From the NCBI GenBank assembly GCA_020633335.1, contig JACKDU010000002.1:442730-506729 (forward strand): a DNA stretch of 64,000 nucleotides. Direction: 5' to 3'. Position 1 is the first letter of the stretch. Each line of letters begins with the position of its first letter. Below are positions 19,163 to 45,197 of the stretch, piece by piece. Under the pieces are notes generated by a model. It saw only the letters and a program-made list of their open reading frames with translations. It ran no database searches and was not told the DNA's origin. The position numbers were made by a program, and so were the translations under genes. This DNA is from Myxococcales bacterium (GTDB lineage Bacteria; Myxococcota_A; Polyangia; Nannocystales; Nannocystaceae).

Positions 19163-19184
19163 CCGCTCAACAACTGAATGGCCT

Positions 19185-19350
19185 GCGGTCACGCCCGAGG
19201 ACGGCGTGAAAAGAGGGAAGTCGGTGAAGATCCGACGCGGCTCCCGCCACTGTGATCGGTGACGAGGTCTGCAAAGAGCCACTGGGGGAGAAACCCTGGG
19301 AAGGCGCAGACCGAGGATGACCCGAAAGCCAGGAGACCTGCCGCAGGCGA
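19185..19350 (+). promoter_or_regulatory. cobalamin (AdoCbl) riboswitch
   Basis: Near-consensus elements in order: 'agaGGGAAGtcGGTGaAgATCCgacGCGGCTCCCGCCACTGTga', then 'GCCACTGGGggagaaaccctGGGAAGGC' (B12 box), then 'GAcccGaaAGCCAGGAGACCTGCCgc'. It lies in the 5' leader of a TonB-dependent receptor gene. Confidence 0.88.
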
Positions 19351-19548
19351 CCTCGCCGCCCCGCTCGATGCGGGGCGCGGTCCACGGGAGGATGGACCGG
19401 AGCGCCCGCGTTCGGCGGGCTCCCGCCTCCCTGGAATTGGTGAGACGGGAGCGAACTCGCCATCACACGCCGACGCCCCTACCCCCCTCTCTTCAGCGCC
19501 CTCGCCGGACTCCTCGGCGCCGCCACAGCAGCGGCGCCTGCCGCGGCG

Positions 19549-21648
19549 ATGGCCGCAGGTGAGGACGGGGCCGCAGGGGGCTCCGCGCGTCCCACCGAGG
19601 AAGCACCGGGGAGATCGCAGGCTGATTCACCCGGCGCCCTGCGGACCGTCGTCCGCAGCCGCCGCGATCCCCAGGCCGAGGCCGACGCCCGCAGCCCGGG
19701 CTTCGTCACCGCGATCGACGTCGCGGCGATCGAGGACAGCCGCCCCGCGGACGATCTCCCGCGCCTCCTCAATGAGGGGGCGGCGACCAACGTCCGCTCG
19801 CTCGGCGGCCTCGGGCAATTCTCGGCGGTGTCGATCCGCGGCTCGACCGCCCAGCAGGTCGCCTACTACATCGACGGCGTCCCCCTCGGCCAGGCGCTGA
19901 GCGGCCTCCAGAGCGCGGGCGATCTCCCGCTCGACGGCCTCGATCGCATCGAGGTCCACCGCGGCCACCTCCCGCTCGCGCTCGGCTCGGCGATCGGCGG
20001 GGCGATCAACCTCGTCGGCGATCTCCGCTGCCGCGGCCCGGCCCTGCGGGCGATCGCCGGGGTCGGCTCCTTCGCCGGGCATGACGCCCGCCTCGCGACG
20101 CGCTGGCGGATCCGCCGGGTCTGCCTCAGCGCCCGCGCCGGGGTCGCCGGAGCAGCCGGCGACTTCGACTTCCTCGACACCCGCGGCACCCCGCAGAACC
20201 CCGCCGACGATCGGCTCGTCCGGCGCCGCAACAATCAATACGAGCGGGCGCTCGGCCAGCTCGGGGTCGCGGCCCGCCGCGGCCGCTGGGTGCTCCGCGG
20301 CCGCCAGCTCGTCGCCACCAAGCGCCAGGGGATCCCGGGGCCCGGCTACGCCCAGTCGACCCTGAGCGAGCTCGAGACCCTGAGCGCGCGGACCCTGGCG
20401 AGCGCCGAGGCCAGTGACCTCCTCGGCGAGGGCGCGCCGCTGACCTGGGTCGCCAGCGTCGGCGTCGAGCGCCGGCGCTACCGCGATCCCCTCGGCGAGG
20501 TCGGCCTCGGCAACGACGACGAGCGCCTCCTCGCCGCCGACGCCTACCTCTCGCCGCGCCTGGCGGTGCCGCTCTGGCGCGGCGCGATCCTCTCGCTCCT
20601 CGGCGAGGGCCGGGGCGAGGCGATCGCGGTCGACGAGGCCCAGGGGGTCCCGGGCGCGAGCGGCGACGCCCGCCGCCGCCGCTTCGCCGCCGCCGCCGGC
20701 CTCCAGCTCGATCAGCGCCTCGGCGGCCGCTTGCTCGTCGCCCCGGGGATCCGGATCGACGCCCTCCGCAGCCGCTTCGCCGTCCCCGCGGGCGAGGGCG
20801 AGGTCGACGATCAGGGGCGCGACGCCGCGACCCTCGGGACCTCGCCGCGCCTCGCCGCCCGCCTCGATCTCGGCGAGGGGCTGAGCCTGCGGGCGAGCGC
20901 CGGCCGCTACTTCCGGGCGCCGACCCTCGTCGAGCTCTTCGGCGACCGCGGCTATGTGATCGGCAACGAGGGGCTCCGCCCCGAGCGCGGCACCAACCTC
21001 GAGGGCGGCTACGTCTACCGCCGCGGCGGCCGCGATCGCGATCTCGACCTCCGCCTGCACACGGCTGGCTTTTGGACCAGGTCCGAGGATCTGATCCAGT
21101 GGGTGCAGACCGGGCCGGTGATCCAGCCGCGCAACCTCGCCGCGGCGCTGGTCCGCGGGATGGAGCTCGGCCTCGCCGCGAGCTGGCGGCGCCTCCTCGC
21201 CGTCGACGCGAGCTACACGCTCCTCGCCACCCGCAACCTCAGCCCCGACGCGTCGATGGCCGACAAGCGCCTGCCGGGGCGCCCCCTCCACCAGCTCTTC
21301 GCCCGCGCGAGCGCGGGCTGGCGCTTCGCCAGCGCGGTCGCCGGGGCGATCGAGCCGCGCCTCCACTACACGCTCGAGGTCACCTCCGGCACCTTCCTCG
21401 ACGCCTCCGAGCGGGTCGCCGTGCCGCCGCGGGTGCTCCACGGCTGCGGGATCAGCGTCGAGCTCGCCGAGCGCCTCCGCCTCGCGCTCGAGCTCCGCAA
21501 CCTCCTCGATCTCCGGACCACCACCTGGACCCCGCCGGTCCGCGGGGCCTCGCCGCTGACCGTCCCGGTGAGCGACTTCATCGGCTACCCGCTCCCCGGT
21601 CGCTCGCTCTGGGCGAGCCTCCGGATCGACCTCGATCGCCCGCACTAG
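19549..21648 (+). CDS. btuB: TonB-dependent outer-membrane receptor (BtuB-like, B12-riboswitch controlled)
   Basis: Plug domain 'IDVAAIEDSRPADDLPRLLNEGAATNVRSLGGLGQFSAVSIRGSTAQQVAYYIDGVPLG'. A long beta-barrel follows. Only the ATG at 19549 is available in this frame. The in-frame upstream stretch encodes a signal-peptide-like sequence with no start codon (see findings). Confidence 0.85.
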   Translation: MAAGEDGAAGGSARPTEEAPGRSQADSPGALRTVVRSRRDPQAEADARSPGFVTAIDVAAIEDSRPADDLPRLLNEGAATNVRSLGGLGQFSAVSIRGSTAQQVAYYIDGVPLGQALSGLQSAGDLPLDGLDRIEVHRGHLPLALGSAIGGAINLVGDLRCRGPALRAIAGVGSFAGHDARLATRWRIRRVCLSARAGVAGAAGDFDFLDTRGTPQNPADDRLVRRRNNQYERALGQLGVAARRGRWVLRGRQLVATKRQGIPGPGYAQSTLSELETLSARTLASAEASDLLGEGAPLTWVASVGVERRRYRDPLGEVGLGNDDERLLAADAYLSPRLAVPLWRGAILSLLGEGRGEAIAVDEAQGVPGASGDARRRRFAAAAGLQLDQRLGGRLLVAPGIRIDALRSRFAVPAGEGEVDDQGRDAATLGTSPRLAARLDLGEGLSLRASAGRYFRAPTLVELFGDRGYVIGNEGLRPERGTNLEGGYVYRRGGRDRDLDLRLHTAGFWTRSEDLIQWVQTGPVIQPRNLAAALVRGMELGLAASWRRLLAVDASYTLLATRNLSPDASMADKRLPGRPLHQLFARASAGWRFASAVAGAIEPRLHYTLEVTSGTFLDASERVAVPPRVLHGCGISVELAERLRLALELRNLLDLRTTTWTPPVRGASPLTVPVSDFIGYPLPGRSLWASLRIDLDRPH

Positions 21649-24163: not shown

Positions 24164-25234
24164 GTGATGACGATGCGCGGAGACGAGCGTCGCGGGGAGC
24201 GCGGAGGCGAGCACAGGGCCCGCCTGCGGCGTCGGGCGTCGGCGGCCGCCGCCGGAGATGTCCCCACGACCAGGTCGAGCGGGCGCGCGCGCGCGGGCGA
24301 TTCGCTCGACGTCGCCGCCGCGACCGAGCCCCGCGAGCGACGCCCTCGCGCCCGCCTGCGCAGCCTCGCCGGCGCCCTCGCCCTCGCCTGCGCCACCTCG
24401 CTGTCGGCCTGCGCGCGCCCCCCTGCCCCGCGTGCGGAGACCAACGAGCACCGGCGGGTCGCCTCGCAGACGGTGCTCAGCGACGAGATCCTCTGGGCGC
24501 TCGGCCCCGAGACCCAGGCCCGGGTGATCGCCGTCTCGCCGCTCGTCGACGATCCCCGCTACTCGACGATCCCCGGCGCCTGGCCGCCCGCGCTGCCCCG
24601 CCTCGCCGGCTCGTCGGAGTCGCTCCTCGCGCTCGCGCCGGACCTCGTGATCATCGCCTCCTTCACCGCCCCCGAGACCCGCGTCTTCCTCGAGGCCCAC
24701 CACGTCGAGACCCTCGAGCTCGACGCCTTCACCGGCTTTGACGATCTCTGGCGCCACACCCGGGCGATCGCCGCGGCGGTCGACGCCGAGGCCGCGGGCG
24801 AGGCGCTGATCGCCGGCCAGGAGGCCCGCCTGGCCGCGCTCCGCCGCGATCACGATCGCGGGCGCCGCCCCGCCGCCGTCTCCTGGGGCGACGGGATGAT
24901 CGCCGCCCGCGACACCTCCTTCGACGCGATCGCCGGGGCCGCCGGGCTCGACAACCTCGCCGCCGCCCGCGGTCTCGTGGGACATGTCCCTTTGACCATC
25001 GAGGAGCTCACCGCCTGGGATCCCGAGGTCATCGTCATCGGCTGCGAGCCGCCCGGCTGCGAGGCGGCGGAGCGCGAGCTCGCCGGGCGGCCGGGGATCG
25101 CCGCGACCCGGGCGGCCCGCGAGGGCGGGATCATCGCGCTCCCGGCGGCCGCGCTGGCGAGCACCGGCGAGGGGATGATCGTCGCCGCCGAGCTCCTCAG
25201 CGCCCGCCGCCTCGCGCTCCCGGAGGCGCCGTGA
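24164..25234 (+). CDS. btuF: ABC transporter periplasmic substrate-binding protein, BtuF/FecB (class III) family
   Basis: Signal 'LRSLAGALALACATSLSACA'. 'RVIAVSPLVDDP...LAPDLVIIASFTAPE...HVETLELDAF...WDPEVIVIGCEPPG' is the two-lobe siderophore/B12 binding-protein pattern. Confidence 0.75.
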   Translation: MMTMRGDERRGERGGEHRARLRRRASAAAAGDVPTTRSSGRARAGDSLDVAAATEPRERRPRARLRSLAGALALACATSLSACARPPAPRAETNEHRRVASQTVLSDEILWALGPETQARVIAVSPLVDDPRYSTIPGAWPPALPRLAGSSESLLALAPDLVIIASFTAPETRVFLEAHHVETLELDAFTGFDDLWRHTRAIAAAVDAEAAGEALIAGQEARLAALRRDHDRGRRPAAVSWGDGMIAARDTSFDAIAGAAGLDNLAAARGLVGHVPLTIEELTAWDPEVIVIGCEPPGCEAAERELAGRPGIAATRAAREGGIIALPAAALASTGEGMIVAAELLSARRLALPEAP

Positions 25235-26244
25235 GCCGCCTCCCCCTCGTCCTCGCCCTCGCCGCTGCGCTCGCGGCCCTCGCCCTCGCGCTCCTCGTCG
25301 GCCCCGGCGAGCTCGGCCCCGGCGACGTCGCGGCGATCCTCGGCCACCACCTCGGCCTCGTCGACGCCGCGCCGCCGCCGATCGCCGACGCGATCATCTG
25401 GGAGCTCCGCCTCCCCCGCGCCCTCCTCGCGGCGGTGATCGGCGCGGCCCTCGGCGGCGCCGGGGCGATCACCCAGGGCCTCTTCCGCAACCCGCTCGCC
25501 GAGCCCGGCGTCCTCGGGATCTCCTCCGGAGCCGCCCTCTTCGCGGTGATCGGCTTCGCCCTCGGCCTCGACGCCGCGACCCCGTGGGCAGCCGCGCTCC
25601 TCGCCGCCGGCGGAGCGACCAGCGTCCTCCTCCTCCTCCTCGCCTTCGTCGGCGCGCGGATCGACGTCGCCACCCTCCTCCTCTCGGGGGTCGCGGTCGC
25701 GGCCCTCGCGTCGGCGGTCACCACCCTGATCCTCGCGCTCGCGTCGGCGCGCTGGGATCTCGGGCTCCGGGTGATCCACTGGCTCATGGGATCCTTCGAG
25801 GGCCGGAGCTGGGGGCACCTGGCGATCGCCGCGCCGATCGTCAGCCTCGGCCTCGGCCTCAGCCTCTGGATCCGCCGCGACCTCGACGTCCTCTTCCTCG
25901 GCCCCGAGAGCGCGCGCTCGCTCGGCGTCGACCTCCGCCGCCTCCACCTCCAGGCGATCGCGGCGATCGGCCTCCTCGTCGGCGTCGCCACCGCGCTCAC
26001 CGGGATCATCGGCTTCATCGGCCTCATCGTCCCCCACCTCGCCCGCCGCCTCGGCGGCCCCGGGCACCGCCGCCTGATCCCGCTGAGCGCGGCGATCGGC
26101 GGCGGTGTCCTCCTCCTGGTCGACACCGGCGCCCGCGCGTTCACGTCCTTCGTCCTCCCGCCCGGGGTGATCACCAGCCTCCTCGGCGCGCCCTTCTTCC
26201 TCTGGATCCTCTGGCGCCAGCGGGTGCGGGTCGACGGGCTCTAG
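25231..26244 (+). CDS. btuC: ABC transporter permease, FecCD/BtuC family
   Basis: 'RLPRALLAAVIGAALGGAGAITQGLFRNPLAEPGVLGISSGAAL' is the FecCD signature. About 9-10 TM helices. Start overlaps the upstream stop. Confidence 0.85.
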   Translation: MSRLPLVLALAAALAALALALLVGPGELGPGDVAAILGHHLGLVDAAPPPIADAIIWELRLPRALLAAVIGAALGGAGAITQGLFRNPLAEPGVLGISSGAALFAVIGFALGLDAATPWAAALLAAGGATSVLLLLLAFVGARIDVATLLLSGVAVAALASAVTTLILALASARWDLGLRVIHWLMGSFEGRSWGHLAIAAPIVSLGLGLSLWIRRDLDVLFLGPESARSLGVDLRRLHLQAIAAIGLLVGVATALTGIIGFIGLIVPHLARRLGGPGHRRLIPLSAAIGGGVLLLVDTGARAFTSFVLPPGVITSLLGAPFFLWILWRQRVRVDGL

Positions 26245-26370
26245 CGCACTAGCGGGGCGTCGCCTTTGCATGTCCGAGTGGACATGTTGATCGCGCCCCC
26301 GAAGGTCCTCGACGACATGTCTCTTCGGACATCTTCTTCGAGGGGCTCGTCGTCACGCGCCGCAGCGCCG

Positions 26371-27675
26371 CTACTCGATCTCGACCCGCCGCACGAGCAC
26401 CTCGCCGATCGTCACCTCGACCGCGACCGCCTCGGGCGGCGGCGTGAAGCGGACGCCGACGCCGACGCCGACGAGCGCCCCCTCCCCGTCGAAGGCCCGC
26501 CAGCGCCGGAGCGGCTCGCCCTCGTCCCAGCCCTCCGCCGGCGCCAGCCAGCCGTCGCCGTCGCCGACCAGCGCGGCCGCGTAGGCGGGGGGCTCCTCGG
26601 GGAGCGGCGCCCCGGCCGGCCCGAAGAAGCGCTCGTCGACCGGCTCATTGCGCCAGTCGCAGTGGACGTGGTCGTCGTAGACCTCGCGGAAGCCGGCGCC
26701 CTCGACCCCGCAGCGGTCGTAGACCTCGGCGAGGCTCGCGTTCGACGCCTTGAGGTCGAAGGCGTCGCCGTAGATGTGGCGCGACCAGGTCGAGCCGCCG
26801 AGGCCCGCGTTGTGGACCGGGTTGCGGAACCCCGAGGGCACGGTGATCGGCCCGAGCGCGTCGCGGATCGCCTGGATGTGCTCGACCGCCGACGGCTGGA
26901 CGACGACGTAGGGCCCGAACTGGGCGGTGACCAGCTCGCTGAACGCGAAGTTCGGCGCGACCTTGATCCCGAGGTCGACGCCGGTGAGGTCGATGAAGGC
27001 CAGGGGCGCCCGGTAGTTCGGGTCCTGATCGAGGGGCGGCGGGTACTCGAAGCCGAGCTCGTCGGCCGCGGGCAGCACCAGCGGGAAGCAGACATCCCAG
27101 GCGCCCCCGGGCCCGGGGTAGCAGACGTCGTCGCCGAGGACGCCAGTGTCCCCGGTGTCCCCCGTGTCCCCGGTGTCCTCGCCGTCGCTGACCACGGTGA
27201 CCCGCGTCGCGCCGCCGACGATGTAGCCGCAGCCGTCGTAGGCCGTCGCCTGGATCGACCGCGGGCCGACCGGCGCGAAGGTGTACTCGACCGCGAAGTC
27301 CGAGGCCACGTCCGTGCTCTCGCCGATGTAGAGCACGGCCTCGGCCTCGTAGACCACCCGCGCGACCGGCCCGTCGGCGACCGCGGTGATCGTGACCGGG
27401 TTGACCGCGCTCGCCCCCGGCGACGTGATCTCGAGGTTGACCGTCTGACCGCAGGCCTGGCCGCCGGTCTGGCCGCCGCTGGTCCCCTCCCCGCTCTCCC
27501 CGCCGCTCGACGACGAGGCGCCGGTCGACCCCTCCCCCGACGAGCCGGGGCCCGGGTCTCCGCTCGAGGGGAACGCGTTGGTCCCGCCCTCACTCGCCCC
27601 CTCGGAGGGGCCACCACAGGCGACGCCGAGCGCGGCCGAGAGGGCGCCTGCGAGGTATTTCGGGGGTCTCACCAT
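26371..27675 (-). CDS. secreted lipoprotein with C-terminal peptidase M15/DUF882-like (YcbK/VanY-type) zinc D,D- or L,D-peptidase domain
   Basis: Lipobox 'LSAALGVACGG'. Gly/Ser-rich linker. Motif 'VPSGFRNPVHNAGLGGSTWSRHIYGDAFDL...DDHVHCDW' matches the SGxR...N..GG..S.H..G.A.D...H.D metal site of M15/DUF882 peptidases. Confidence 0.65.
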   Translation of the reverse strand: MVRPPKYLAGALSAALGVACGGPSEGASEGGTNAFPSSGDPGPGSSGEGSTGASSSSGGESGEGTSGGQTGGQACGQTVNLEITSPGASAVNPVTITAVADGPVARVVYEAEAVLYIGESTDVASDFAVEYTFAPVGPRSIQATAYDGCGYIVGGATRVTVVSDGEDTGDTGDTGDTGVLGDDVCYPGPGGAWDVCFPLVLPAADELGFEYPPPLDQDPNYRAPLAFIDLTGVDLGIKVAPNFAFSELVTAQFGPYVVVQPSAVEHIQAIRDALGPITVPSGFRNPVHNAGLGGSTWSRHIYGDAFDLKASNASLAEVYDRCGVEGAGFREVYDDHVHCDWRNEPVDERFFGPAGAPLPEEPPAYAAALVGDGDGWLAPAEGWDEGEPLRRWRAFDGEGALVGVGVGVRFTPPPEAVAVEVTIGEVLVRRVEIE

Positions 27676-28445
27676 GCGGCCATGTCCTTCGGGTTGCGGG
27701 CGCCGTCAGGCGCCGACGGTCGTCGAGTGTAGCTACAAGCGACGCCCTCGCCCGGCCCTTTTTCACAGCCTTTTTGGCGAAGAAGGCTACAGATTTGTCT
27801 CACGGGGCGACGTCCCCGAGGGCGCCGCCAGACGATGTGACATCCCTCAGAGCATCCCATAAAGACATGTCCATAGCAACATGTCTCTAAATACATGGTC
27901 CGCTGAGCATCGCTCAAGACCGCCCTGCGCGCCCCTGCGTGCGGGCGAAAGCGTCAGCGAGGGATCCCGACCCCAGCGGCGATCGGGTTCGCGTGGGGGG
28001 ACGCCTGCGATCGCGCGGCGCGTCCTCGCCAGCGACCCCGCAGCCGGCCGCGCAGCCGGCCGCGGGAGCGCGCTGCGCATGATCTCCCAGAGGACAAGAC
28101 CACAACATATTGGGTAGCCATGCGCGATCGATCCACGACATCTTGGGGCGCGTCGCGATCGCCCTCGCCCGCGCTCGATCACGCGGCGAGCGATCAAGTG
28201 CCAGTGTCAGATTACGTGCACATACATCAGGGCGAATGCGCGCCTGAACAGACGTGCATAGACCACTACGAAAGGCCCCGAACCATCGTTATGATGGTCG
28301 CCCTCTTCACCCCAGGTCGTGATCGAGACCGTGCCGAGCAACGCATATCACCGGCGCAGCCGCGCCACCTCTGCCCCGGCTTCCCGACGGCCCGGACGAG
28401 CGAGCGCTCGCCCGGCGCCTGGTCCCCGACAAGGAGTAGGACACT

Positions 28446-29475
28446 GATGCGACGCGCACTGCCTGCGCTTCTGCCTGCGCTTCTCACGACGCTGCTGGCC
28501 GGCCCCCTCGCCTGCGGCGGCGTGCCCGACGAGGACGAGACCAACTCCAGCGGCGAGCTCAGCGAGGGCCGCGAGCTCGCGGCGATCGAGGAGTCAGACT
28601 CCAACCTGGTCCTCGCGCTCCTCGAGAGCGACGGCAACGCCGACCCGGACGCCGATCCCGACGCCGACGCCGACGCCGCCGAGAGCGCGGGCGACGACGA
28701 GGCCGCCGCCGACTTCGTCCCCCGGGCCTGCGTCCACTCGCTCGACGAGAAGCGCCCGCGGATCACCAAGTCCGCCCAGCTCCTCACCAAGCGGATCATC
28801 CGTCACACGGCCAAGCGCATGGGGGTCCACGAGGACTTCCGAAAGCTCCTCGCCCTCATCGCCCTCCGCGAGTCGAGCTACCAGTCGGGCCTCGTCCACC
28901 GCCTCTCACCTGACCTAAACGCCAGCTACTCGAGCTGGCGGAAGATGTCGGCGCGCTACGAGGACAACCCGCACGCGAGCGACCCGACCCTCTGGCAGAC
29001 CTACGGCCTCTTCGGGATGAACTCGAACTACTTCACGCTCCTCTGGGATCAGAAGGCCGATCCCCGGGTGCTCTGCGATCCGATCGTCGACATCATCCTC
29101 TACCGGCGGGCGGCCGAGCGCGCGCTCCGGAAGATGCTGAGCGGGCCGATCCGCTGCAAGGGACAGGACGGCGACACCTTCGACATCACCGTCGAGCCGA
29201 CCTGGGGGAACATCCACCGCGCGGTCTCCGGCGGGAAGATCTGTCCCTCGAAGCATGAGGAGCGGGCGGCGACGATGCGCAAGTACTTCGACGCGCGGGC
29301 CCGGCGGGTCGGCATCGACCCGAACGCTCGGGTCTCGCTCAAGATGCTCGGCAAGGAGCCCGGCCGCGGCCTCGACGGCGAGACCTGGGAGGGCCAGGAG
29401 GCGATGGTCACCGGCCTCTGGAAGGAGATCGACGCCGGCGCGGACGACAAGCGCGCCGCCGCCGAGGACGAGTAG
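28446..29475 (+). CDS. lipoprotein with SLT-like lytic-transglycosylase motifs (putative cell-wall hydrolase)
   Basis: ATG 28446 follows 'aggagtagg'. Signal 'MRRALPALLPALLTTLLAGPLACGG'. Acidic repeat 'DADPDADPDADADAAESAGDDE'. 'LLALIALRESSYQSGLV...YGLFGMNSNYF' resembles the E-S...GLMQ catalytic region of SLT domains. Confidence 0.5.
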
Positions 29476-29628
29476 GCCAGCGGTCCGGCCTGCATGAGGC
29501 CCCCACGAGGCCCAGATGAGGCCAGATGCCCCCAGCGCGAGGGATCCCGACCTCGGGTCAACTCGGGAGGCATCTGGCCTCGTTATCAGCCCGCCCGGCC
29601 GGTCCCGTGGTAGAGTCAGCCCCCCTCG

Positions 29629-30675
29629 ATGACCGCGGCCCAACCCATCAACGCCTACATCTCGGGCACCGGCTTCTACGTGCCGCCGCGGATCGTGACC
29701 AACGACGATCTGGTCAACGGCTACGGGATCGAGACCACCAACGAGTGGATCATCCAGCGGACCGGCATCGAAGCCCGACGCTACGCCGAGCGCGGGGTCG
29801 GCAGCGCCGAGCTCGGCGCCCGGGCCGCAGAGGACGCCCTCGCGGACGCGGGGATCGCCGCCACCGACCTCGATCTCATCGTCTTCGCCACCCTCTCGCC
29901 GGAGTACGCCTTCCCCGGCAGCGGCGTCCTCCTCCAGCACCGCCTGGGCCTCAACGAGGGCCCGAACGCGCGCCACGTCCCGGCCCTCGACGTCCGCAAC
30001 CAGTGCTCGGGCTTCCTCTATGGGCTGACGACCGCGAACGCGATGGTCCGCTCGGGGGCCGCCCGCCACGTCCTGGTGGTCGGCGCCGAGACCCACTCGG
30101 CCGCCCTCGATCTCACCACCCGCGGCCGCACGGTCTCCTCGCTCTTCGGCGACGGAGCCGGCGCCGTCGTCGTCTCGGCGACCACCGAGGACCGGGGGAT
30201 CCGCGGCTGCTACCTCGGGGCCGACGGCTCGCAGGCCGAGACCCTCTGCCAGCGGGTCTGGGACATCCGCGAGCGCCCCTTCATCCCCCTCGGCGAGGAC
30301 GGCTGGGGCCGGGTCTCCCCCGAGCACATGTACGCCCACATGGACGGGCGGATGGTCTTCAAGCACGCGATCGCCAAGATGACCGGCGTGCTCAAGCAGG
30401 CCTGCGACGACCTCCACGTCGGCCTCGACGACATCGACCTCTTCTTCTTCCACCAGGCCAACCTGCGGATCAATCAATACGTCGCCGAGCTCCTCAAGCT
30501 GCCGGCCGACAAGGTCCCGCACAACATCGAGCGCTACGGCAATACGACGGCGGCGACCCTGCCGATCCTCCTCGCCGAGGCGGTCGATGACGGGCGCCTC
30601 CGCCCAGGCGCCAAGATCGCCCTCGTCGCCTTCGGCTCCGGGTTCACCTGGGGCTCGGCGATCATCGACTGGTAG
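29629..30675 (+). CDS. fabH: 3-oxoacyl-[ACP] synthase III (KAS III)
   Basis: 'ISGTGFYVPPRIVTNDDLV...NEWIIQRTGIEARRYA' and active-site 'RNQCSGFLYGL' (Cys), with the His/Asn region 'FFFHQANLRINQYVAELL...GNTTAATLP'. Confidence 0.85.
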   Translation: MTAAQPINAYISGTGFYVPPRIVTNDDLVNGYGIETTNEWIIQRTGIEARRYAERGVGSAELGARAAEDALADAGIAATDLDLIVFATLSPEYAFPGSGVLLQHRLGLNEGPNARHVPALDVRNQCSGFLYGLTTANAMVRSGAARHVLVVGAETHSAALDLTTRGRTVSSLFGDGAGAVVVSATTEDRGIRGCYLGADGSQAETLCQRVWDIRERPFIPLGEDGWGRVSPEHMYAHMDGRMVFKHAIAKMTGVLKQACDDLHVGLDDIDLFFFHQANLRINQYVAELLKLPADKVPHNIERYGNTTAATLPILLAEAVDDGRLRPGAKIALVAFGSGFTWGSAIIDW

Positions 30676-45129: not shown

Positions 45130-45197
45130 GCGCGCTCGAAGACCCTGTCCTCAAGGACAGGGCCCCCGTACCAGCGCCCGCGCCGGGAGGCGCGCGC

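Follow-up and report, generated by a model that had tools for sequence, protein, structure and literature searches.

The locus described here lies in a stretch of 64,000 nucleotides (hereafter, the window) from a Myxococcales bacterium of the family Nannocystaceae (assembly GCA_020633335.1, contig JACKDU010000002.1, positions 442,730 to 506,729 of the forward strand). The subject of this study is a short inverted repeat, the dyad CATGTCC-N4-GGACATG, which stands in clusters on both sides of a gene for an M15 family peptidase. Comparison with relatives shows that the motif is a family-wide element, older than the M15 gene and not specific to hydrolase genes. The genes and the riboswitch of the locus are listed below, with coordinates counted from the first letter of the window.

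19169-19359, + strand: cobalamin riboswitch (125 bits), the sole gathering-level Rfam match in the 64-kb window
19444-21648: TonB-dependent receptor of the B12-uptake operon
25231..26244, + strand: FecCD/BtuC-like ABC permease gene (Pfam PF01032, E 2.5e-81)
26371..27675, - strand: M15 family zinc peptidase (D-Ala-D-Ala carboxypeptidase type), lipoprotein, 434 amino acids
28447..29475, + strand: lipoprotein, 342 amino acids, with a putative lysozyme/lytic-transglycosylase-like fold, of an unnamed Nannocystaceae family (hereafter, the transglycosylase-like protein)

The gene order is permease, M15 peptidase, a divergent spacer of 771 bp, the gene for the 342-amino-acid lipoprotein, and then fabH. 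A preliminary description of this DNA had placed the M15 start correctly at 27675, whereas it gave the spacer as 770 bp and the start of the second gene as 28446; that gene starts at 28447, with AAGGAG 10 nt upstream. The permease gene closes a riboswitch-controlled B12-uptake operon and not an iron-uptake operon, because the cobalamin riboswitch lies upstream of the TonB-dependent receptor gene. The G+C content of the spacer is 0.62-0.69, compared with 0.72-0.78 in the flanks, so the region is AT-richer, as had been noted, and no tRNA or tmRNA was found in it. The copies of the dyad and its relatives at the locus are as follows, with matches counted against ATGTCC-N4-GGACAT.

26270-85: S1, 12/12 matches, 25 nt past the permease stop, in the convergent spacer
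26317-32: S2, ATGTCT-CTTC-GGACAT, 11/12 matches, ~25 nt past the M15 stop codon
27864..27900: S3-S4 array, GACATGTCC-ATAG-CAACATGTCT-CTAA-ATACATGGTCC, two overlapping dyads with a common central CATG
27867-82: S3, 10/12 matches
27881-96: S4, 9/12 matches
27681..27687: lone half-site CATGTCC, which reads GGACATG on the coding strand of M15 and precedes its start codon by 6 nt
27837-27845: degenerate copy GTGACATCC, not conserved in the alignment

S1 reads CATGTCC-GAGT-GGACATG at 26269-26286, as previously described, and what had been called an 18-bp perfect palindrome consists of 7-bp inverted arms around a non-symmetric 4-nt spacer. S2 is embedded in a longer inverted repeat, CCTCGAcgACATGTC...GACATcttcTTCGAGG (26306..26345), and its ACAT words, at 26315 and 26329, are separated by 14 bp. 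The words GACATGTC and GGACATC, which the preliminary description had noticed here with coordinates 10 bp too high, are both present, at 26314-26321 and 26327-26333. The S3-S4 array is upstream of both divergent genes, at 190-225 bp from the M15 start and 550-580 bp from the transglycosylase-like gene. Its three ACATG(T/G)TC copies begin at 27865, 27879, and 27893, and the 14-bp phasing claimed for them is exact; the GTGACATCC reported near 27833 also exists, at the coordinates listed above. The lone half-site at 27681..27687 has no partner half-site (2/6), and its significance is uncertain.

The hairpin on one side of the M15 gene and the 14-bp direct repeats on the other are a single element, the dyad CATGTCC-N4-GGACATG, of which S1 is an isolated copy. 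The 14-bp register arises because abutting dyads share the palindromic CATG (…GGACATGTCC…). When the three units of the 11 orthologous arrays were stacked, CATG was the most conserved part; the first unit kept only the right flank (TCC), the last unit kept only the left flank (rGA), and the middle unit kept both. This pattern is expected of two dyads with one CATG in common and not of three independent units. The idea that each GACATGTC is an independent direct-repeat unit was rejected, since the end units retain the inner half only. In ATGTCC-N4-GGACAT, the half-site centres are 10 bp apart, about one helical turn, which is the geometry of an operator.

ACATGTC had 11 matches on both strands of the window against 1.86 expected, and none of 100 shuffles reached 11, so the repetition exceeds chance; five of the seven distinct sites are within 1.6 kb around the M15 gene. 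For ATGTCC-N4-GGACAT with up to 3 mismatches, 37 matches were found in the window against 14.0 +/- 3.6 expected. With up to 2 mismatches, the two spacers beside the M15 gene contained 5 dyads against 0.03 expected, a number reached in 0 of 2000 local dinucleotide shuffles. Outside the locus, CATGTCC was near compositional expectation in the 64-kb window, where dyad copies occur in 3 of ~45 intergenic spacers. The only other non-coding relative of the dyad in the window is CTGTCC-TCAA-GGACAG at 45145-45160. It lies in a 10-bp-stem hairpin, 16 nt past the lspA stop and between the convergent lspA and CDP-alcohol phosphatidyltransferase genes; it is G+C-rich and may be a mere terminator hairpin.

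The locus was compared with 23 genome loci, 26 metagenome loci, and several assembly contigs, all of which carry the transglycosylase-like gene. The order permease, M15 (where present), lipoprotein, and fabH was kept across relatives. The M15 gene was found only in the closest clade and was absent from Nannocystis species and several intermediate metagenome-assembled genomes; in Nannocystis and other relatives without it, the transglycosylase-like gene comes directly after the permease gene. Therefore, the M15 gene is a clade-specific addition, and the two genes are not an obligate pair. None of the 11 M15-clade spacers lacked the upstream array, which kept its place and register in each, for example as GCATGTCC-TTGG-GGACATGTCC-CAAG-AGACAT in L007 and as ACATGTCC-AAAA-GGCCATGTCC-TAAC-AGACAC in L012. 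The distances from ACAT to ACAT in 31 orthologous spacers showed a sharp peak at 14 bp, with 13 pairs compared with 0-1 at neighbouring distances, and a second peak at 33 bp, which comes from another box pair. The flanking proteins of the compared lineages are 52-77% identical, and the spacer DNA beside the arrays is unalignable, so the upstream arrays are under selection.

The dyad was also found after the permease gene in Nannocystis loci without M15 (L018, L020, L033, L040, and L043). In M15-less loci of the Nannocystis type, a hairpin-like CTGTCC-N4-GGACAG dyad lies just past the permease stop, and ATGTCC-N4-GGACAT follows 20-45 nt after it, 450-500 bp upstream of the lipoprotein gene. The S1-S2 layout of the window is the same as this one (the counterpart of S1 is in L040 and L043), and the other M15-clade genomes examined have, at the S1-S2 position, a short convergent spacer or one without a dyad. 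Because the dyad is present at the locus without M15, the element is older than the M15 gene. The M15 gene was inserted later, into a control region older than itself, and the element brackets it in the window. A duplicated, degenerate permease 3' fragment of ~80 bp was seen in L010 (3640-3770), ~50 bp past the real stop at the M15 junction, and looks like a rearrangement footprint at the insertion point.

The motif was found at other loci as well. In the Nannocystis loci L022-L027, an OmpA-like gene and a Tpt1/KptA gene converge, and in the spacer between them dyad arrays start 3-10 nt past the OmpA-like stop. The 3-4 dyads of such an array fold into a single long hairpin, imperfect and ~44 nt in length, whose loop is of the GAAA type. 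These OmpA-side arrays are located as follows.

L022: 10246-10317
L023: 10331-10402
L025: 10411-10468
L026: 10214-10257
L027: 10396-10472

Arrays also lie between the lipoprotein and BtuF-like genes of the B12 operon in L040 (234-393) and in L043 (281-317). The L040 array consists of six dyads as 3 x 48-bp tandem units and ends at the start codon region, and the dyad copy number differs between these two metagenome contigs. A 12.7-kb Nannocystis locus has 1-3 non-coding arrays. No dyad was found beside M15 homologues in four other genomic contexts. Many further dyads with up to 2 mismatches in the Nannocystis loci were discounted as coding coincidences and not counted as repeats; examples fall in GHVP of the BtuF-like protein, DLSxGTS repeats, a lipoprotein signal peptide, and FabH.

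Both DNA-level and RNA-level explanations were considered for the dyad. In the predicted fold of 26255-26345, two hairpins are formed, with z of -3.3 on the + strand and -3.7 on the - strand, and S1 makes the 8-bp stem of one of them. The long hairpins of the Nannocystis OmpA-side arrays have z of -4.8 and -3.7, and GAAA or UUCG loops are found in some of the 3'-end copies. For the upstream arrays, a folding z of -2 or lower was obtained in 6 of 11 lineages only, and the pairings differ. The half-site sequence is conserved and the N4 spacer is free, with information peaks at CATG and the inner flanks, and a deviation in one half is usually uncompensated in the other half. A terminator scan gave 0 terminator-like sites in 26200-28500, and S1 is followed by TTGATCG with no T-run. 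In a permissive Rfam search of 25800-29800, no spacer match was found at E <= 1; the sole match at this threshold (Cupriavidus-1, E 0.26) lies inside the M15 gene. The arrays thus keep a sequence and a geometry and lack a conserved RNA structure, and we robustly infer that a sequence-specific factor recognises the CATGTCC dyads.

We tentatively favour, at a little under an even chance, the reading that the dyad is a docking site for a putative dimeric DNA-binding protein, and we give the same guarded preference to an operator or boundary site as its mode of action, on the basis of 64 kb of genome and the loci of relatives. In this model, a sequence-specific dimer would recognise CATGTCC-N4-GGACATG; half-site centres ~10-11 bp apart are the usual geometry of helix-turn-helix dimers, and such a protein would fit the dyad. 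Two or three dimers could bind adjacent dyads side by side and cooperatively. The site is part of a control region, long and rich in boxes, that separates the B12-uptake operon from the transglycosylase-like gene; it has persisted there throughout the Nannocystaceae, and the M15 gene was inserted beside it in the clade of the window. Because of this insertion, S3-S4 is now between divergent genes and could influence either promoter. At S1-S2, where the permease and M15 genes converge, the bound protein or RNA hairpins may act as a boundary or roadblock instead of an operator.

Several points weigh against a protein docking site. S1, S2, and the OmpA-side arrays are in convergent spacers, 3-25 nt past stop codons, where no promoter is expected. 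The 3'-end copies make good hairpins, some of them with the GAAA or UUCG loops mentioned above, and the copy number varies by species, with the 3 x 48-bp tandem of L040, as is typical of repeat families. On dyads that overlap by 4 bp, adjacent dimers would have to pack in an unusual way. No regulator gene was found among the genes examined at 17-36 kb of the window (~8 kb on each side of the locus), and no promoter could be placed at the locus by sigma-70 and sigma-54 scans. The main rival, which we consider possible but less likely, is that the dyads are dispersed palindromes of the repetitive extragenic palindrome (REP) or bacterial interspersed mosaic element (BIME) type, acting at the RNA level as 3'-end or intercistronic hairpins. 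We give such hairpins the same standing as a mode of action. Their effect would be to end transcripts or make them more stable, the family would owe its shared sequence to the agent that spreads or binds such repeats, and S3-S4 would be an old 3' element of the B12 operon displaced by the M15 insertion. The positions just past the permease, M15, and OmpA-like stops, the folding scores there, the arrays between B12-operon genes in L040 and L043, and the related hairpin between convergent genes at 45145-45160 all agree with this, and the lack of S1 and S2 in other M15-clade spacers is consistent with gain or loss of repeats. On the other hand, the copy number is low (3 of ~45 spacers in 64 kb), CATGTCC is near compositional expectation beyond the locus, and retention at one orthologous position across the family would be unusual for REPs. 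The upstream arrays have been selected although no gene ends there, and they do not preserve the capacity to form hairpins. Moreover, the stems are short (6-8 bp) and contain A+T, no U-tract terminators were found, and the mismatches are not biased towards G-U.

The preliminary description proposed that the motif could be the operator of a dedicated regulator, which controls the M15 and transglycosylase-like genes together as a predatory lytic pair. S3-S4 does lie in their divergent spacer and is conserved in every relative with both genes, and both products are of secreted cell-wall-enzyme types. However, the motif is present at the same locus without M15, is found at non-hydrolase loci in Nannocystis, and is missing at M15 homologues elsewhere. 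The copies that match best occupy a convergent spacer without a promoter, and no gene next to the locus encodes a regulator. Between the array and the transglycosylase-like start, a distance of 550 bp, there is also a 270-bp block of much stronger conservation. The site is non-random, conserved, and probably recognised by a factor, as had been supposed; that it is dedicated to a lytic pair, we consider improbable, and the co-regulated pair is not upheld since M15 is confined to the closest clade and the motif predates it. A more improbable explanation still is that the clusters are attachment-site (att)-like junctions, formed when M15 with one dyad recombined with a chromosomal dyad after the permease gene and left direct copies on both sides. 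It would account for a clade-specific gene between the permease gene and the array, flanked in the window by dyad clusters in the same orientation, for an S1-S2 pair that repeats the Nannocystis layout of hairpin and then dyad past the permease gene, and for the duplicated permease fragment at the L010 junction. Yet a left-hand copy is missing from the other M15-clade genomes examined, no integrase is in the neighbourhood, M15 homologues elsewhere lack the sites, and the Nannocystis arrays do not flank obviously variable genes; to our knowledge, a 4-bp spacer is also too short for the core sites of known tyrosine or serine recombinases. The broader form, in which the dyads would belong, as att-like sites, to an undescribed system of gene capture or insulation in Nannocystaceae, with single genes inserted between direct copies at operon ends, seems even fainter to us. 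If it were true, the gene-end arrays of Nannocystis would be further docking sites, in a system that depends neither on integrons nor on the core-site geometry of known recombinases. Finally, the spacers are A+T-richer than the genes, and the equal-spacing test taken alone is modest (some 5-mer occurred three times at equal spacing in 68 of 2000 shuffles), so that an A+T-containing word might cluster there by chance. Against this, no composition-preserving local shuffle reached the observed dyad count, and the register and position are conserved across independent lineages; the local shuffling and the 14-bp distance peak effectively refute chance, which we regard as negligible.

The strongest conservation in the 771-bp spacer does not belong to the repeats. 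It belongs to a non-coding block on the + strand, 28070..28340 (~270 bp), ~105-375 bp upstream of the transglycosylase-like start, in which column conservation is 0.7-0.9 compared with 0.45-0.65 in the rest of the spacer. By blastn, the block is 68-83% identical across relatives, and the flanking proteins are no better conserved than 52-77%; it is single-copy in the window. The block consists of invariant boxes split by variable G+C-rich spacers.

28070-88: GCGCTGCGCATGATCTCCC
28098-115: GACCACAACATATTGGGT
28133-48: CCACGACATCTTGGGG, a direct repeat of the 28098-115 box, 33 bp away
28196-210: AAGTGCCAGTGTCAG
28243-54: CCTGAACAGACG
28266-74: CTACGAAAG
28287-97: CGTTATGATGG

The two direct-repeat boxes contain CCACAACATATTGGG and CCACGACATCTTGGG (CCACrACATnTTGGG), 33 bp apart; in Nannocystis, the same words turn up as CCACAACATCTTG and CCACAACTTGTGG. 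The block had no Rfam match. RNAalifold gave no supported consensus structure for either strand or for the leader, with ~7 independent lineages and hence limited power; the + strand gave -12.6 kcal/mol with a covariation term of +0.95, the - strand gave -27.6 with a term of -0.45, and the leader gave -9.0. A conserved small open reading frame was rejected, as stops and lengths vary between relatives and there are single-base indels; the similarity seen in all six frames reflects the conservation of the DNA itself. No recognisable sigma-70 or sigma-54 promoter was found in 28070-28340. Invariant CTACGAAAG stands 17-18 bp upstream of an invariant TATGAT, and the two are possibly within a promoter. 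We read the block as a dense, putative protein-binding control region.

Other features of the spacers were also examined. A box CGAGTGTAGCTAC lies at 27724..27736, ~50 nt upstream of the M15 start; the M15 strand reads GTAGCTACACTCG, which includes TACACT. Its GAGTGTA is near-invariant in 12 sequences, and it may be a possible -10 region of the M15 promoter. A sigma-70 promoter consensus scan of the spacer gave no match, and a sigma-54 candidate, TGGCGACCCCGTTGCC, was rejected because it occurs in 3 of 11 lineages only and not in the window. An inverted repeat in the Nannocystis spacers, CTGKCASATT...AATSTGMCAG, was rejected as covariation, since broken pairs were as many as compensated ones. 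An exact 16-mer, GCGAGGGATCCCGACC, is found at 27957-27972 and 29537-29552, upstream and downstream of the transglycosylase-like gene; the word GGGATCCC is conserved at the upstream position in several relatives, and the downstream copy is not conserved. The repeated GAGGGATCCCGAC was rejected as a second regulatory motif, with two exact copies in the window and a 2-mismatch count at expectation. Its second copy is enclosed, in the spacer between the transglycosylase-like gene and fabH (29520-29579), by an 11-bp inverted repeat, GGCCAGATGCC ... GGCATCTGGCC, with arms 38 nt apart, which could be a terminator or another structured element.

Both proteins beside the divergent spacer have N-terminal signal peptides that end in A-C, as in lipoproteins, in agreement with the preliminary description. 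The M15 protein matches Pfam PF08291 with E 8e-14 and 52.2 bits (cut-off 23.2). It aligns with PDB 1LBU, the Streptomyces zinc D-Ala-D-Ala carboxypeptidase, with E 1.6e-6 and SRHIYGDAFD opposite SRHMYGHAAD (SRHxYGxAxD), and it has the zinc-ligand motif H-x6-D, in keeping with an M15 peptidase. Inside its gene, a 9-bp tandem repeat (TGTCCCCGG-like, ~4 copies) at 27147-27182 encodes a GDTGDTGDTG linker that joins the N-terminal and peptidase domains. The transglycosylase-like protein carries the invariant motifs R-E-S-S and YGLFGMNSNY, and its family is confined to Nannocystaceae-like genomes. It had no Pfam family at E <= 0.01 and hence no SLT profile match, no relevant sequence match to any PDB chain, and nothing significant in Foldseek. 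Family 1 lytic transglycosylases (SLT domain: Slt70, MltE, and Bdellovibrio DslA) differ from the 28447-29475 product, which lacks a Pfam SLT match; the earlier SLT-like label is probably right at the fold level, and the protein falls outside the SLT sequence family. The start region of its gene (28431-28449 and orthologues) is near-invariant, with AAGGAG, ~8 nt, and then yTGATGCGA, and the TGA that overlaps the ATG is retained in 9 of 9 aligned sequences. The NCBI annotation (P0001, 317 amino acids) starts 25 codons later and thereby loses the signal peptide.

Almost nothing is known about the cis-regulatory DNA of the Nannocystaceae, which are large-genome, predatory, and natural-product-rich myxobacteria. 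A site kept at one locus throughout the family and reused at other gene ends is a handle for finding its binding protein, and it raises the question of whether protein roadblocks or REP-like hairpins replace canonical terminators in this family. The 270-bp block marks the gene for a family-specific lytic-transglycosylase-like lipoprotein as under unusually elaborate control, which makes this gene a candidate for studies of predation or of how the cell wall is remodelled. As regards annotation, the view that the two genes form a co-regulated lytic pair is corrected.

Compared with known systems, the dyads have partial counterparts. The FNR box of the CRP/FNR family, TTGAT-N4-ATCAA, is the operator of a dimeric helix-turn-helix protein with a 5-4-5 geometry. 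Like it, the dyads here have conserved inverted half-sites with centres spaced by ~10 bp, a free 4-bp spacer, and a place in a control region; unlike it, they have another sequence, share CATG in a 14-bp register, and stand in several cases in promoter-less convergent spacers. In the met-boxes of MetJ, short palindromic units are arranged head to tail, abutting with an 8-bp period, and neighbouring dimers bind cooperatively. The tandem arrangement of short palindromic units is similar, whereas the period here is 14 bp with a variable spacer, and the end units keep the inner half only. REP and BIME elements resemble the dyads as imperfect, hairpin-capable palindromes in single or variable arrays after stops, between cistrons, and in convergent spacers. 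They differ in that REPs are 20-40 nt long and the dyads 16-18 nt, the density in 64 kb is low, the dyads are kept at one orthologous site across genera, and hairpin potential is not kept in the upstream arrays.

Our literature search found nothing on the GACATGTC motif in myxobacteria, on myxobacterial REPs, or on ATGTCC/GGACAT operators, and the only analogue was CggR of Bacillus subtilis, a regulator of the SorC family; no SorC-family gene was found near the locus. In the operator of the gapA operon, whose right half-site is GGGACATATAATGTCC, CggR is bound as a dimer of dimers (PMC2943609). It binds tandem GGGACA...TGTCC-type sites cooperatively and acts as a roadblock to RNA polymerase (PMC2943609). 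The half-site order there, GGACA...TGTCC, is the reverse of TGTCC-N4-GGACA here, and the sites are separated by ~22 bp instead of 14 bp. Nevertheless, the GGGACA/TGTCC words and the tandem sites are alike, and CggR may serve as a loose precedent, in which the roadblock mechanism could suit the gene ends described here.

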